A stretch of DNA of 64,000 nucleotides from an uncultured Planctomycetota bacterium (GTDB taxonomy: Bacteria > Planctomycetota > Planctomycetia > Gemmatales > Gemmataceae): positions 704,001-768,000 of the forward strand of contig CAWKHF010000005.1 in NCBI GenBank assembly GCA_963849325.1. Reading direction: 5' to 3'. Shown here one piece after another: positions 12,146 to 15,673 of the stretch (positions are counted from its first letter, which is position 1; every line of letters starts with the position of its first letter). The translations under genes were made by a program, and so were the position numbers. The notes beneath the pieces were generated by a model that saw only the letters and a program-made list of their open reading frames with translations, was not told the origin of the DNA and ran no database searches.

Positions 12146-12350
12146 CGTTCGCTCTCCTGTCCTTGGGACCGTTGGCTTGGTTCGTCGTTGGGTTTTTTCG
12201 TCTCTCATGACTCCATAGTATTAGTGTAAGTATGTACATTATTTCTGTCAACGCTTTTTGGGCATTTTTTTCGGTTTATTTCCTGAATTGACACAAAAAA
12301 TAGCCTTCTGATGGCCGAGTATGATCAAATAAGTAGACATTATTAGACTT

Positions 12351-12399
12351 TGCACAAAAACGCGGTTCTGCACAAAAACCCTTCGGGCTGCACAAAAAC
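12351..12399 (+). repeat. Three TGCACAAAAAC direct repeats at the transposon left end
   Basis: Copies at 12351, 12369, 12389. Confidence 0.9.
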
Positions 12400-12596
12400 G
12401 CCAGTATGGCAGGTGTCGAAGTGGCAGAAAGGAGACAGATAGGAATGCGCGGATGGAAGTAACCCCTATCCGACAAGGGAGAGAGAAGCCTCTGAACCTT
12501 GCCGGATAGGGTACTTGCGATGGCCGGTTGACAAGACCGACCGTCCGGGACTTTGTAGCCCCTGGCACTGCTTCGGCAATCTACTGTTGAAGTCTC

Positions 12597-12625
12597 TTGA
12601 CTCGAAGAGTTGAGGGATCTACGAT
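12597..12625 (+). promoter_or_regulatory. Putative sigma-70 promoter upstream of the structured leader and tRNA
   Basis: TTGACT-17 bp-TACGAT. Confidence 0.6.
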
Positions 12626-12683
12626 GGTCAGAGTTGGCGGTCTGACTAACCGCCGATCTCCAAAATTCTGATTATCGAGTGCC

Positions 12684-12746
12684 AAGAAGCGGGCACCGAA
12701 AGAGCGACTATATGTCGCTGTTTTCGGTGCCCGCTTCTTTTGTTTT
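12684..12746 (+). terminator. Long hairpin followed by a T-run (terminator/attenuator-like)
   Basis: AAGAAGCGGGCACCGAAA-GAGCGAC-TATAT-GTCGCTG-T-TTTCGGTGCCCGCTTCTT-TTGTTTT. Confidence 0.65.
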
Positions 12747-12835
12747 GCAGGAGATGAAGAAGGCCAGCGAACGAAGAATGGCCCGGCAACGTCGGCGACC
12801 AACTGCCAAGGAGGAGCCGACGCGCGCGGGGGAGT

Positions 12836-12909
12836 GCGGGTGTAGCTCAAACGGATAGAGCAACCTGGTGCTAACGGGAAGGTTGCAGGTTCGAGTCCTG
12901 CCACCCGCA
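12836..12909 (+). tRNA. Atypical tRNA: anticodon GCT (Ser) on a short-variable-arm, tRNA-Arg-like body; CCA not encoded
   Basis: Acceptor GCGGGTG/CACCCGC; D-arm GCTC-AAACGGATA-GAGC; anticodon arm ACCTG-GTGCTAA-CGGGA; variable AGGTT; T-arm GCAGG-TTCGAGT-CCTGC; A73. Confidence 0.85.
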
Positions 12910-13075
12910 TCCCTTTCTTACTCTTTTTTCTGAGTTTTGAGAAGTAGAGCGGCCAAGGGGGCAGGTTTTGTCCCCGCTCGCCCCTGGCGCAAGCCTGGCG
13001 CGATTGGATGGCGTCTCTGCGCTGGAACAAGGACGTAATGGCATGAGAAAAATCGACACAAATCCTCTGCTACAA

Positions 13076-13104
13076 TTTACTTACGACGATATACTGTGTA
13101 TAAT
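13076..13104 (+). promoter_or_regulatory. Putative sigma-70 promoter of the transposase
   Basis: TTTACT-17 bp-TATAAT. Confidence 0.6.
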
Positions 13105-13240
13105 GGCAGCAGAGAAAAACAAAGCCTCCGAGGTTGCTGGAAACAACCTCGGAGGCAGATGCAACCGGCGGGTTGACGCCAGAAGCACCCTCAATCGCAA
13201 TTCTAGCGATCCCGCCGACTCTCTGGGAAGGGATCGCTCC

Positions 13241-14497
13241 ATGAATCCCTCTGATCCACGCCAGCAAAGAGCGGAACAGATCCTTGCGACCGGCATGATT
13301 GTCCGGCAGGGACACATCTTCTTCGTGCCGAGTCAGTCCGGCAAGCCGCGCCACTCCGTCATGCTGGACGGCGAAGCGCCCTCTTGCGACTGCGCCGATT
13401 TTGAAGAACGACAGCTTCCGTGCAAGCACATTTTCGCCGTGCAAATGATGCTTGAGCGGGAGAAGACCGGCGAACCGCTACCCGAGCCGGTCAAGGTGCC
13501 GTTGCCTCCCAAGCAGAAGACCTATCCGCAGGACTGGCCGAACTACAATCTTGCCCAGACCAACGAGAAGGACCACTTTCAGGCGCTCTTGGCGGACCTA
13601 TGCCGGAACGTCCCGGAACTTCCACCTGCGAAGACCGGCCGCAAGCGTATCCCGCTGGCCGATGCGCTCTTCGCGGCCACGTTCAAAATTTACTCCACTC
13701 TCTCGGCGCGGCGCTTCATGTGCGACCTGGAGGAAGCCCACCGGCGCGGGCACGTCGGACAGGTGCCCTGCTTCAATAGCGTCCTCAACTGCCTGGACAA
13801 CGCCGACGTGAAGCCGATCCTCTTTGACCTCATCCGGCAAAGCGCTCTACCCTTGCGCGAAGTAGACACGGACTTCGCCGTGGATTCCAGCGGCTTTATG
13901 ACCTCGCGGTTCGTCCGCTGGTTCGATCAGAAGTACGGCAGCACGAAGCAGGCGCATGAGTGGGTCAAGGTCCACATCATCACCGGCGTCAAGACGAACA
14001 TCATCGCCGCCGTGGAAATCCTCGACAAGCAGGCGAACGACTTTCCGCAGTTACCTGCGCTCGTCCGGGCAGCGGCCAAGGGCTTCCGCGTGGCGGAGGT
14101 CAGCGCCGACAAGGCATACGCCGGCCGCGAGAACTTCGACGCCGTGGCGGAAGTCGGAGGCACGCTGTACGCGGCCTTCAAGTCGAACACGACCGGCAGC
14201 GTCGGCGGGCTATTCGAGAAGATGTTCCATCTGTTCTGCCTGAACCGGGAGGACTACCTGCGGCACTACCACAAGCGCTCGAACGTCGAAAGCACGTTCA
14301 GCATGGTCAAGCGGAAGTTCGGCGATTCCCTGCGGTCCAAGTCGGACGCGGCGATGGTCAACGAGGCGCTGGCGAAGCTGCTCTGCCACAACCTCGTCGT
14401 GGTGATTCACGAGATGTACGAACTGGGGATTGACCCGACGTTCGGCGCTCCGACCAGAGAGGAATTACCCTGGTTCATTCTGCGGTTCCCAGGTTGA
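13241..14497 (+). CDS. DDE transposase with N-terminal SWIM zinc finger
   Basis: CDCADF...CKH SWIM; QDWPNYN; AVDSSGF, WVKVH, SADKAY, YHKRSNVESTFSMVKRKFG. Confidence 0.92.
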   Translation: MNPSDPRQQRAEQILATGMIVRQGHIFFVPSQSGKPRHSVMLDGEAPSCDCADFEERQLPCKHIFAVQMMLEREKTGEPLPEPVKVPLPPKQKTYPQDWPNYNLAQTNEKDHFQALLADLCRNVPELPPAKTGRKRIPLADALFAATFKIYSTLSARRFMCDLEEAHRRGHVGQVPCFNSVLNCLDNADVKPILFDLIRQSALPLREVDTDFAVDSSGFMTSRFVRWFDQKYGSTKQAHEWVKVHIITGVKTNIIAAVEILDKQANDFPQLPALVRAAAKGFRVAEVSADKAYAGRENFDAVAEVGGTLYAAFKSNTTGSVGGLFEKMFHLFCLNREDYLRHYHKRSNVESTFSMVKRKFGDSLRSKSDAAMVNEALAKLLCHNLVVVIHEMYELGIDPTFGAPTREELPWFILRFPG

Positions 14498-14664
14498 CGC
14501 CTATGAATCGCGTGTCGGTTCGACCGGCAACGCGCTTTGTTTCATGGCCTCGACTGTCCGAAAACGACCTTTACGATAAAATGTTAGTTCGCCCGAGGTC
14601 GATGAGAAACTTCGGGCATAGAATCCTCAAGTCGAGGAACCCTGCTCGATTGCGAGGCCGGTCA

Positions 14665-15249
14665 ATGTCTGAAATCGAATCGCGACTACTCCAGTTGCTC
14701 AAAGACCGCTCGTTCACGCGGGGAAGGTTTCGCCTTGCCTCTGGCGGCGTGAGCGATTACTTCATTGACGGGAAGATGACCGAGGTTTACTCCGAAGCCG
14801 TTCCCCTGATCGGAGAAGCCCTGTACGAGCGTACCAAGGGACTGAACATTGAAGCCATCGGTGGCCTAGAGGTCGGTGCCGTGCCGCTGACCACGGCGGC
14901 CGTTTTCAGTTACGCCCTACATGGCAGAAAGATGGAAGGCTTTTGGGTTCGCGCCAAGCCAAAAGATCACGGAACTCAGAAACTCATCGAAGGGAACCTC
15001 AAGCCCGGATCGCGCGTCGTTGTCGTGGATGACGTGTTTACGAAGGGGAACTCTGCTGCTAAAGCGGTCGAGGAAGTGCGAAGGGTAGGCTGCGAAGTCG
15101 TAGCGGTTTTGGCTCTTGTGGATCGCCTCCAGGGGGCCGCAGACCTCTTCCGAGAACTCGGCGTAGTCAACTACCAACCCATCTTCACAATCCGCGATTT
15201 TGGGGTCGGAGCCGATGTTTGCGGCACAATTGAAGCCACTTCTCGCTAG
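14665..15249 (+). CDS. pyrE: Orotate phosphoribosyltransferase-like protein (transposon cargo)
   Basis: GRFRLASGGVSDYFIDGK, GGLEVGAVP, RAKPKDHGT, VVVVDDVFTKGNS, LVDR. Confidence 0.85.
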   Translation: MSEIESRLLQLLKDRSFTRGRFRLASGGVSDYFIDGKMTEVYSEAVPLIGEALYERTKGLNIEAIGGLEVGAVPLTTAAVFSYALHGRKMEGFWVRAKPKDHGTQKLIEGNLKPGSRVVVVDDVFTKGNSAAKAVEEVRRVGCEVVAVLALVDRLQGAADLFRELGVVNYQPIFTIRDFGVGADVCGTIEATSR

Positions 15250-15547
15250 TGGCCCCTTGCTTGGCGATAGGCTGCGGGACGCTGCTGCCATCTGCGATTC
15301 GTGGTACTCGGCTGAGCCAAGCCTTGTCACTTTCACGCTCCAGTCGCTCCTCAAAGACTTGATCGACCGGGGTTGGACTGATCCGCAGGGCGTCCCCATC
15401 GCTCAGTATCAACCGTTTGAAACCTTGGTGCGTCCCAGTTTGATTCAGGTCGTGGATATTCTCGTCGCTACTCCGGCGGCCGAGCCGATCCCCGAACTTG
15501 ACGCTCTTCTCGTCGCCTACCGAGACTCTATTCGGGCAACCCCCTGA
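15215..15547 (+). CDS. Hypothetical protein (transposon cargo), overlapping the 3' end of the pyrE-like gene
   Basis: GGAG RBS; 110-aa ORF ending just before the right-end repeats. Confidence 0.6.
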   Translation: MFAAQLKPLLASGPLLGDRLRDAAAICDSWYSAEPSLVTFTLQSLLKDLIDRGWTDPQGVPIAQYQPFETLVRPSLIQVVDILVATPAAEPIPELDALLVAYRDSIRATP

Positions 15548-15571
15548 CTCCTCTCCTGCCATCCTGGCACT

Positions 15572-15634
15572 TGCACAAAAACTCCTCCGCCTGCACAAAA
15601 ACTCGGTCAATCCGAGGTCTTTTTGTGCAAAGTC
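15572..15634. repeat. Right-end TGCACAAAAAC repeats (two direct) plus the inverted terminal copy
   Basis: Copies at 15572 and 15592; inverted copy within TIR 15620-15634. Confidence 0.9.
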
Positions 15635-15673
15635 ACATTATTAGACAAGCGAGAGAACGTGTGGAAATGCCTT

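Follow-up and report, generated by a model that had tools for sequence, protein, structure and literature searches.

The insertion sequence (IS) IS903 begins with the bases GGCTTTG. IS10/Tn10 is kept under antisense control, with RNA-OUT acting against RNA-IN; ShosTA couples a phosphoribosyltransferase (PRTase) toxin with an antitoxin, and PyrR is a regulator with a PRTase fold. In the part of the source used here, the IS903 group is described as having a length of 950–1150 bp, inverted repeats, a DDE transposase and a 9-bp target-site duplication (TSD) (PMC8431375). Allo-tRNAs and irregular tRNAs were reported by Mukai et al. (2017) for Acidobacteria and soil metagenomes; in the passages covered, the UAU species is the most abundant, one copy overlaps a 'transposon-related protein', some also lie near toxin-antitoxin genes, and roles as suppressors or as non-translational RNAs were proposed (PMC5389517). 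Here, we describe an element at positions 12346–15634 of a 64,000-nt stretch of contig CAWKHF010000005.1, from an uncultured planctomycete of the family Gemmataceae; this whole stretch is called the window, and all coordinates refer to its forward strand. With a probability of about 85%, we consider this element to be an intact, probably still mobile, cut-and-paste DNA transposon from a very large lineage of the IS5 superfamily, whose transposases combine a SWIM zinc finger with an IS903-like DDE domain.

As read in the sequence, the element measures 3,289 bp. Its left terminal inverted repeat (TIR), GACTTTGCACAAAAA (12346–12360), has an exact reverse complement at 15620–15634, so that the pair is perfect over 15 bp. 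With up to two mismatches allowed, this 15-mer was found at these two places only in the window (over 100 shuffles, the mean was 0.03 and the count never reached two), and no second TIR pair was present elsewhere in the 8.16-Mb genome. G+C content was 58% in the element and 65% in the genome. The initial annotation of this DNA had proposed a complete cargo transposon of 3289 bp, bounded by perfect 15-bp TIRs and a perfect 9-bp TSD and encoding an unbroken transposase; all of this was indeed read in the sequence, with every named part present.

The two ends of the element were also characterized by subterminal repeats. The left end contained three direct copies of (C/T)TGCACAAAAAC, at 12350, 12368 and 12388 (spacing of 18–20 bp), followed by an inner arm (12400–12413) that pairs with 15555–15568 in the right end. 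There, two inner copies of TGCACAAAAAC were found at 15571 and 15591, in the same orientation as those of the left end, so that the left and right ends are unequal. These subterminal repeats would be the sites bound by the transposase. The left end was alike in relatives from three genomes of the same genus (G106, G107 and G104; 81–87%), with 51-base matches (query positions 3–53, 82%) in two further genomes, G119 and G120, and the right end was 82.6% identical to that of the G106 copy (locus L013).

The transposase matched the Pfam domains DDE_Tnp_1 (PF01609, 1.1e-19) and SWIM (2e-5). Its best NCBIfam model was IS5_2 (NF033579), with 94.1 bits for a cut-off of 140; the paralogous transposases of the same genome reached at most 104 bits on this model. 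The SWIM finger, CxCx9CxH, is formed by C49, C51, C61 and H63, and the catalytic residues D215, D290 and E350 are accompanied by Y343, R346 and K357, which complete the Y(2)R(3)E(6)K signature; all of these positions were at least 97% conserved in 67 relatives. A SWIM-DDE transposase had been predicted from the start, and both the Pfam domains and all the catalytic residues are present. The same applies to the N-terminal W..YN motif: W99 and Y102 were invariant in the 67 transposases, and N103 was invariant in an alignment of 26 rows (A5). The frame is open upstream to 12968, and the leader (13043–13240) was considered as a possible N-terminal extension of the transposase. This was rejected: mismatches against five relatives (13046–13240) were even over the three codon positions (e.g., 6/8/8 and 25/20/22), and since differences spread in this way indicate non-coding DNA, 13241 was retained as the start.

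A scan of one genome per species recovered 60 loci of the family, 48 of them archaeal by record title and 12 bacterial. The archaeal loci, mostly from Methanothrix, Methanoregula and Methanosarcinales, encoded transposases 39–46% identical to that of the window; the bacterial loci included Gemmataceae at 79% and Acidobacteriota at 51–54%, as well as others. Family matches (E ≤ 1e-60) were found in 63 of the 252 Gemmataceae genomes, often several per genome. In a set of 5.8 billion proteins, at least 7,687 protein clusters matched at E ≤ 1e-20 among the 8,000 candidates scored; the cluster names in the 120 rows listed were all 'transposase' or equally generic. A quick tree, with SH-aLRT (Shimodaira–Hasegawa-like approximate likelihood-ratio test) as sole support measure and without split transposases such as those of L013 and L142, which were excluded by length and stop filters, separated an archaeal from a bacterial clade with 100% support and placed the window element in the bacterial one.

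Members of the family were delimited by a 14-bp inverted tip of the GGCTTTGC type together with a 9-bp TSD, searched within 6-kb flanks in Gemmataceae. By this rule, 15 out of the 40 Gemmataceae loci were delimited, with sizes of 2,618–9,283 bp and a TSD that was perfect in 14 and matched at 8 of 9 positions in one. Among the metagenome loci bearing a tRNA, 10 out of 12 were delimited (nine perfect TSDs, one at 8 of 9), and two further elements were delimited in the genome of the window. The TIR and TSD arrangement, whose absence from homologues would have spoken against the initial annotation, is therefore present in them. The commonest tip was GGCTTTGC, the window copy having GACTTTGC, and elements ranged from 2,533 to 9,283 bp (2.5–9.3 kb) across the family. 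The shortest, a 2,533-bp member, was present in at least three copies (99.9–100% identical) in an Acidobacteriota genome, with different 9-bp TSDs read at two of them; because this member is multi-copy with different TSDs, the whole unit, tRNA included, is mobile.

Family members share one order: left end, cargo slot, optional tRNA gene, leader of about 130–450 bp, transposase, second cargo slot and right end. The 76 passenger open reading frames (ORFs) of 19 delimited elements mostly encoded proteins without a Pfam family; the others included N6 and Eco57I-type methylases, HTH-M78 peptidases, a Panacea antitoxin, PIN, DUF6932 and HSDR_N domains, and LRAT plus trypsin. Two members stand in tandem in the genome of the window (C6:440993–450791): a 6,075-bp element (447067..440993; TIR AGCTTTGCAACGCA, TSD GCATGGCGG) and, directly upstream, another left end (at about 450791), which is accompanied by a transposase and a G-1 tRNA(GGU); GCATGGCGG precedes both left ends. 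In the Acidobacteriota locus (L027), a group II intron RNA domain (8271–8382, minus strand, 43.8 bits) lies 2 kb to the right of the element.

No close catalogued relative was found in PLSDB, where none of the 58 records covered at least 80% of the transposase and the best matches were IS5-family transposases with 26–27% identity and without the SWIM part, and no relative was found in the phage collection; an already catalogued element of the same organisation was thus not encountered in either. A literature search found no published description of a SWIM-DDE cargo transposon family. The idea of a poorly described family holds in that no account of it was found, but the family is not rare: its members are simply annotated under the generic name of transposase. 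It comprises thousands of protein clusters, in hosts that range from methanogens to Planctomycetota and Acidobacteriota, and moves restriction-modification, toxin-antitoxin and other cargo. The delimiting rules, GGCTTTGC tips and a 9-bp TSD, would let annotators recognise its elements and their cargo. The features of the window copy are listed in Table 1.

Table 1. Coordinates of the element and its parts in the window.
Feature	Position	Strand	Description
TSD, left copy	12337..12345	.	9 bp, ACATTATTA; identical to 15635–15643; single copy in the empty sites of four congeners
Left end	12346..12413	+	15-bp TIR, 11-mer array, inner arm
Unique non-coding segment	12414..12750	+	Promoter-like site 12597–12625; perfect 18-bp hairpin 12684–12739, then T run
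tRNA gene, anticodon GCU	12836..12909	+	74 nt; class-I body, 5-nt variable region, A73
Conserved leader	12984..13240	+	Transposase promoter TTTACT-17-TATAAT (13076–13104), 5' untranslated region, stem over ribosome-binding site
Candidate antisense RNA unit	13114..13229	-	Promoter TTCCCA-18-TAGAAT (13229–13200); predicted transcript of about 80 nt ending at hairpin 13156–13124 and TTTGTTTTTC
Transposase, 418 aa	13241..14497	+	SWIM zinc finger and IS4/IS5-type DDE domain; unbroken ORF
PRTase, 194 aa	14665..15249	+	Orotate phosphoribosyltransferase-like (PyrE type); 12-residue C-terminal tail overlaps next gene
ORF110, 110 aa	15215..15547	+	ORF start 15200/15215; five-helix protein; partner gene of the element-borne PRTase
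Right end	15555..15634	-	TIR 15620–15634, two inner TGCACAAAAAC copies, arm 15555–15568
TSD, right copy	15635..15643	.	9 bp, ACATTATTA; perfect match to left copy

The tRNA gene occupies a slot that recurs across the family. In the genome of the window, three paralogous elements carried a tRNA upstream of the transposase and on the same strand, with the anticodons AGC, GGU and UUA. In Gemmataceae, a tRNA was present in this slot at 5 out of 40 loci (GCU, UUA, CCC, UAG and CCC), 290–455 bp upstream, and the slot of the Acidobacteriota element held a tRNA with a UAU anticodon. An independent sample of 80 metagenome loci, retrieved with a 26-sequence profile and searched with ARAGORN, yielded 13 tRNAs in 12 loci, all of them on the transposase strand and 133–373 bp upstream of its start (in this sample, L244 and L245 are the same element, and the TSD of L228 is a run of G). 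This represents 12 out of the 63 loci with at least 600 bp of upstream DNA, or about one in five, for a chance expectation of about 0.1 cases, computed from the host density of 92 tRNAs in 8.16 Mb. Insertion next to a tRNA gene used as target was rejected, as the tRNA lay inside the TIRs in all 14 delimited tRNA-bearing elements. In the tree, these elements were scattered across the bacterial clade; among the 48 archaeal loci, upstream tRNAs were found at one only (L039). We conclude that the slot is a fixed, family-wide position. The RNA cargo announced by the initial annotation was thus correct as regards the tRNA, and is moreover a trait of the family.

Many slot tRNAs have long-arm bodies combined with AGC, UUA, CCC, UAU, GCA, ACA or CGU anticodons. 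Related bodies were found with different anticodons (AGC/CCC, 81% identical; UUA/CCC, 76%; GUA/UAA, 82%; ACA/GCA, 74%), and each member of the AGC/UUA/CCC trio was at most 69% identical to any host tRNA. At C2:189639–189710 of the same genome, a 72-nt tRNA(UUA) of the ochre-suppressor type, with a Glu-like body (70%), is located some 1 kb ahead of a family transposase, itself matched in separate pieces (190697–191681 and 194762–194962). The genome also contains dense tRNA arrays (C12:838476–839555, 12 genes; C4:433741–435175, 13 genes; C1:515629–516193, 7 genes), in which some genes have odd lengths; these may be tRNA arrays of mobile elements. Upstream of the tRNA-Gly(CCC) of another family member (L122), an int-alpA RNA match was observed (351–419, plus strand, 55.2 bits).

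The tRNA could serve the element outside translation, as a processing and insulating signal ahead of the transposase leader (RNase P/Z cuts and a stop to read-through), as a regulatory or toxin-antitoxin-like RNA, or as a decoy for nucleases that cut tRNAs. Relative to the transposase, the gene keeps a constant position and strand, with an anticodon that varies freely; a T-rich tract follows it, and toxin-antitoxin and defence genes (a PIN domain among them) abound in the cargo of the family. In addition, about 80% of the members have no tRNA, which is therefore dispensable for transposition. Against such a role, a mere processing signal needs neither an intact anticodon arm nor a recurrent GCU anticodon, and this element encodes no nuclease partner. 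We consider a non-translational function a serious candidate, at somewhat less than even odds.

The insertion site was compared within the genus by searching the left flank in ten other genomes, nine of which held the locus, making ten with that of the window. Four of these (G109, G100, G102 and G103) had an empty site: the left-flank gene and the right-flank gene, which encodes an HtrA-like protease, were 170–385 bp apart, one copy of ...TAGACATT(A/G)TTAGACA... was present at the junction, and the sequences aligned base for base with the window flanks once the element and one TSD copy were removed. Because four species of the same genus keep an unbroken target site, the element is a true insertion, and the single-copy sites correspond to the pre-insertion state. 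The other six genomes (that of the window, G104, G106, G107, G108 and G101) had an occupied locus, with flank similarity running straight into an element tip. The G106 copy had its own perfect TSD, TAACAATGT, corresponding to the allele of these 9 bp found in G102 and G103. This copy was in the opposite orientation, its cargo differed on both sides and its transposase was frameshifted; another left end abutted its TSD. In G108, only the left end, a 40-bp scrap of the transposase and the PRTase gene remained.

The target, written as TAGACATTRTTAGAC, is a conserved AT-rich motif located about 90 bp upstream of the promoter-like site of the neighbouring gene (TTGACA-17-TACACT), and this 15-base motif is unique in the 8.16-Mb genome. 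At window positions 12334–12348, and at the same site in the four empty genomes (L179, L180, L182 and L184), TAGACATT(A/G)TTAGAC stands out as a conserved island in otherwise poorly conserved intergenic DNA, and could serve to regulate the neighbouring gene (11708–12208). To the left of the inverted G106 copy, L013 2190–3305 contains an inverted left end abutting the same 9-bp TSD and two degenerate right-end-like stretches, which we take as signs of repeated insertion and decay at a hot spot. A doubled arrangement similar to that of G106 was observed in G107 (L178). About 1.1 kb to the left of the window element, a 79-aa ORF (10994–11233, plus strand) matched HicA_toxin (Pfam, 8.6e-12).

Alternatively, the element could be an old resident, present at this locus since the ancestor of the genus and later inverted, reshuffled or lost, in which case the window copy may be immobile. 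Occupancy of six of the ten locus-bearing genomes, the mere remnant in G108, the single copy in the genome, and a flank identity (77.5%) close to the identity of the transposase DNA (76%) in the G106 copy are all in line with this. It fits less well with the perfect TIRs and TSD, the intact frame and the catalytic residues of the window copy, or with the lack of any footprint in the four empty sites, one of which (G109, flank identity of 82%) ranks among the occupied genomes (81–83%). Moreover, the inverted orientation, different cargo on both sides and extra left end at the TSD of the G106 copy fit repeated hits on a regenerated target. Long residence thus appears possible but on the unlikely side, and we read the site as a hot spot that has been used repeatedly and is regenerated by each insertion.

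Two passenger genes follow the transposase, namely a PRTase gene and a gene of no known family, as had been announced. The PRTase exceeded the cut-off of the pyrE model TIGR00336 (128.7 versus 106.8 bits). In 12 aligned sequences, from which L167 was left out because of an in-frame stop, residues D122, D123, V124, T126, G128 and S130 were invariant, and to judge from the sequences all conserved motifs are kept; these residues belong to DDV-FTKGNS, which we take to be the phosphoribosyl pyrophosphate (PRPP)-binding motif. The PRTase was 70% identical to the chromosomal copy of the same genome, 73% to the copy in L129 and 89% to that of G108. The latter was rejected as a chromosomal donor, since it lies in the degenerate element at the same site. 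The chromosomal pyrE (C5:813923–814940) is flanked by tRNA-Leu(GAG) and tRNA-Gln(CUG), and this locus could be a place where an element once took up both a pyrE and a tRNA. Two groups were apparent in the PyrE alignment (A4): a DDVFTKG group with the element-borne copies and those of G101, G103 and G199, and a DDVITxG group with the chromosomal copy of this genome and those of G109, G212 and others. The residues that differ between the groups fall within the predicted contact patch of ORF110.

ORF110 had ten homologues (nine of 110 aa, one of 96 aa), with 60–87% identity and 33 invariant columns. Its AlphaFold2 model is a five-helix bundle with a predicted local distance difference test score (pLDDT) of 93.7; Foldseek found no PDB match at E ≤ 0.001, and no family was found in Pfam, NCBIfam or PADLOC. 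Searches of genome contigs recovered nothing with the single sequence and three loci with the alignment, one of them already known. In L129 (6,168 bp), the order transposase, PRTase (73%), ORF110 (58%) was found with the same overlap, next to a transposase only 49% identical to that of the window; in L142, a frameshifted PRTase gene follows the transposase, and in the L185 remnant, ORF110 follows the last 47 codons of a PRTase gene. For the complex of PRTase and ORF110, the prediction scored 0.63, versus 0.38 for the best control, with at least 97% of contacts shared between runs and a partner pLDDT of at least 91; in calibration, the 0.63 mark was reached by 58 out of 80 solved complexes and by 2 out of 110 mismatched pairs. 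The predicted contacts involve PRTase residues 20–34, as well as 124, 126, 127 and 129 in the PRPP motif.

The simplest account of these genes would be an ordinary captured pyrE conferring a metabolic benefit, with ORF110 as an unrelated hitch-hiker. The PRTase does pass the PyrE equivalog cut-off, it shares 69–90% identity and 79 invariant columns with PyrE-type genes of 11 other loci (the L129 and G108 copies included), and its sole match in PADLOC is an 18-bit touch of the ShosT profile at the PRPP motif. Yet ORF110 occurred only beside element-type PRTases (the window copy, L129 and the L185 remnant), and was found at none of the 10 loci examined where pyrE stands without a transposase. 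The two genes overlap by about 35–50 nt, the pair has been kept between elements whose transposases are as distant as those of the window and L129, and binding is predicted by the complex model. A mere captured pyrE therefore seems doubtful to us, and an enzyme with a dedicated regulator or antitoxin-like partner is rated somewhat above it. ORF110 would then cover the N-terminal loop and the PRPP-binding motif of the PRTase, in an enzyme-regulator or toxin-antitoxin-like pair. ORF110 is a new small protein, and may regulate a core enzyme of pyrimidine metabolism.

The window tRNA, which had been called tRNA-like, is a full tRNA by its covariance score: it matched the Rfam model (RF00005) over its full length (1–71) with 60.3 bits for a gathering score of 29, and ARAGORN read its anticodon as GCU. 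In the Rfam alignment, it has a standard 7/5 cloverleaf and a short variable region. The nearest host tRNAs were Asn(GUU) and Arg(ACG), at 78% each, and no tRNA-Ser was among the closest three; the host tRNA-Ser(GCU) has 90 nt and a long arm, so that the window tRNA does not have the serine-type (class II) form. As judged from its sequence, the body is Arg/Asn-like rather than Ser-like, and does not match the anticodon. In a Methanothrix metagenome-assembled genome (L039, 933–1140), a tRNA-Leu(UAG) and a 74-nt class-I tRNA(GCU), the latter with the same combination of anticodon and body, lie about 350 bp upstream of the transposase.

Such a tRNA could be a working decoder that inserts arginine at AGC/AGU serine codons, with the slot spreading missense and nonsense suppressors. 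Its score is typical of a real tRNA, U8, G18-G19 and a UUCGAGU T loop (which fits the T-Psi-C motif) are readable, and its closest host relatives include tRNA-Arg along with tRNA-Asn. A20, C35, U36 and A73, presumably the identity set of ArgRS, are read here as Arg-type. The combination is also recurrent: a second class-I tRNA(GCU), 64% identical, occupies the same slot in L140, and a third lies upstream of the archaeal L039 transposase, in addition to two slot tRNAs with the ochre-reading UUA and the long-arm bodies with AGC, CCC, GCA, ACA, CGU and UAU anticodons. According to the passages covered, some such soil tRNAs do insert amino acids in E. coli according to the identity of their body (PMC5389517). 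Conversely, position 32 is a G, the anticodon stem contains an A-A mismatch, and proteome-wide Ser-to-Arg errors should be costly. The same passages report that allo-tRNA(UAU) variants and the G-1 tRNA(GGU), which has GUG at positions 35–37 and is charged by E. coli HisRS, are unused in E. coli translation, with a non-translational role suggested, and that a GCU irregular species is not charged by E. coli GlyRS or ThrRS (PMC5389517). Decoding of serine codons as arginine is thus rather improbable in our view.

As regards the slot as a whole, we tentatively propose that this family, with its dedicated tRNA slot, serves as the vehicle in which the irregular, anticodon-shifted tRNAs of soil bacteria arise and spread, the window copy carrying either an Arg-type tRNA reading AGC/AGU or a charged, untranslated regulator; we hold this to be possible but still unlikely. 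If true, decoding could be rewritten locally by a mobile element, or such an element could keep a tRNA charged but out of translation, as a regulator. For the allo- and irregular tRNAs known from soil metagenomes since 2017, the slot provides a genomic context and a mobility mechanism, and it makes their function testable.

The non-coding stretch ahead of the transposase measures 895 bp. About 0.9 kb of structured non-coding DNA had been noted at this place; its length stands, but rather than forming a single structured RNA, the stretch is composed of end repeats, a unique segment that ends in a terminator hairpin, the tRNA gene and a conserved regulatory leader. In the 251 other Gemmataceae genomes, matches were found only to the left end (positions 1–83), to tRNA-like stretches and to the leader (from position 640), with none to 12430–12781, and Rfam (E ≤ 1, 11500–16500) returned the tRNA and chance hairpin matches only. 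The unique segment has the sequence layout that fits a candidate small RNA of about 110 nt (12632–12750), for which the predicted fold is -59.5 kcal/mol (z -9.6); the stretch 12400–12640 folds with a z of -4.4.

The leader, in contrast, was 74–84% identical between elements whose transposases were only 48–60% identical. Its transposase promoter has 10 of 12 matches to the consensus, and a candidate antisense RNA faces it, with a predicted fold of -47.6 kcal/mol (z -8.5). All six leaders aligned retain the two promoters, with the -10 box of the antisense unit, as well as the A run and the hairpin, in which three pairs show compensatory changes; a stem covers the GGGAAGGGA ribosome-binding site. 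The antisense RNA of about 80 nt would overlap the 5' end of the transposase mRNA and the stem would hide the ribosome-binding site, amounting to control of the IS10 type. This candidate antisense leader is a concrete lead, suggesting that an unrelated family may use an IS10-like control circuit.

A long structured non-coding region, a 9-bp target shared by several species and a motif unique in the genome could also recall the bridge and seek RNAs of IS110/IS1111, but a guide RNA for the target motif is very improbable and RNA-guided targeting was rejected, as the best match between element interior and target was a 9-mer inside the transposase gene (64 out of 200 shuffles reached at least 9), the unique segment is missing from all relatives in the 251 other Gemmataceae genomes, the TSDs of other family members have no common sequence, and no guide is required by a DDE enzyme whose end repeats are bound by protein.

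Several points weigh against the reading of the locus as an intact, mobile cargo transposon with the parts described here. This genome has a single copy, so that present activity is deduced from intactness only, and six occupied genomes out of ten at one site are compatible with old vertical inheritance and later loss, rather than with a recent hit. The transposase missed the IS5_2 equivalog cut-off (94 versus 140 bits). About 350 bp (12414–12750) have no relative in the 251 other Gemmataceae genomes and no match in Rfam. The antisense unit consists of consensus promoter and terminator patterns, together with conservation in six related leaders, and the leader hairpin may act in the sense mRNA instead. 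As for the passenger pair, the PRTase was modelled as a monomer, and the contacted face may be the dimer interface of the enzyme itself; the control in which ORF110 was kept and the PRTase was swapped gave the score of 0.38, which makes ORF110 somewhat sticky in the model; and the PRTase, 70–90% identical to housekeeping PyrE with all motifs kept, may be a spare pyrE.

Compared with known systems, the leader resembles IS10/Tn10 in its convergent promoters near the transposase start and in a putative short, stable stem-loop antisense RNA against the 5' end of the transposase mRNA, with a predicted occlusion of the ribosome-binding site. It differs in belonging to an unrelated IS family and sequence, and in that the antisense RNA is predicted here to overlap about 80 nt of a 130-nt untranslated leader, not the start codon. 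The passenger pair recalls ShosTA and PyrR, as a PRTase-fold protein with a small partner gene on a mobile element. Unlike ShosT, however, the window PRTase is close to housekeeping PyrE, the ShosT profile touching residues 107–151 only (18.2 bits, E 4e-4; PADLOC), and ORF110 is unrelated to ShosA.

The irregular tRNAs of Mukai et al. (2017) show the same misfit of anticodon and body, including UAU, GGU (G-1, C73, G37) and GCU species, and the paralogue at C6:448563–448637 in the genome of the window is exactly a G-1/C73 tRNA(GGU) with G37 (PMC5389517, passages covered). Allo-tRNAs are defined there by a 12-bp acceptor branch (8/4 or 9/3), a long variable arm and a long D stem with a tetraloop (PMC5389517), whereas the window tRNA is 7/5 with a short variable region and is not one of them; the UAU tRNA of the Acidobacteriota element was, by eye, unlike two allo-tRNA(UAU) sequences given in the supplement of that paper. 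Neither a transposon nor a fixed slot is described in the passages covered, and our literature search found no paper joining allo-tRNAs with a transposase, so that the vehicle and its fixed slot appear new relative to that work.

The archaeal SWIM-DDE members share the transposase architecture (39–46% identity), the TIRs and the TSD with the window element; their cargo is often of the restriction-modification or defence type, and they too are inserted just upstream of a promoter-like site. The window element differs from them by its place in a separate bacterial clade and by its cargo, a tRNA and a PRTase pair.

Finally, the IS903 group is represented here by ISRusp1, an IS5_2 equivalog from the Ruegeria plasmid pSD25 and one of the PLSDB matches; it is the nearest catalogued relative found, with 27% identity over 294 residues (E 4.5e-16). 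This element of about 1,050 bp has GGCTTTGTTGCGC... tips, ending in GGCTTTGTTGCGCAAAGGC on both sides, and reaches 378.7 bits on IS5_2, the model that is also the best for the window transposase. The IS903-like traits initially recognised, 9-bp TSDs and a GGCTTTG start, were recovered, with tips of the GGCTTTGC type: both have DDE_Tnp_1 with a Y-x2-R-x3-E-x6-K signature, a 9-bp TSD and inverted ends starting with GGCTTTG (GGCTTTGTTGCGCAAAGGC versus GGCTTTGC... in the family and GACTTTGC in this copy). So were the departures from the IS903 type, namely the presence of a SWIM finger and of cargo, and a length of 3.3 kb where about 1 kb is typical. Identity is only 27%, with 94 bits for a cut-off of 140; the family has an additional N-terminal SWIM zinc finger and subterminal repeat arrays; and its elements measure 2.5–9.3 kb with cargo on both sides of the transposase, versus 950–1150 bp without cargo in the part of the source used (PMC8431375). 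With its 3,289 bp, its tRNA and its two passenger genes, the window copy likewise lies outside the 950–1150 bp, transposase-only format. On sequence grounds, the tip, the TSD length and the catalytic domain appear to tie the family to the IS903 group, whereas it is distinguished from that group by the SWIM finger, the subterminal repeats, its size and its cargo.

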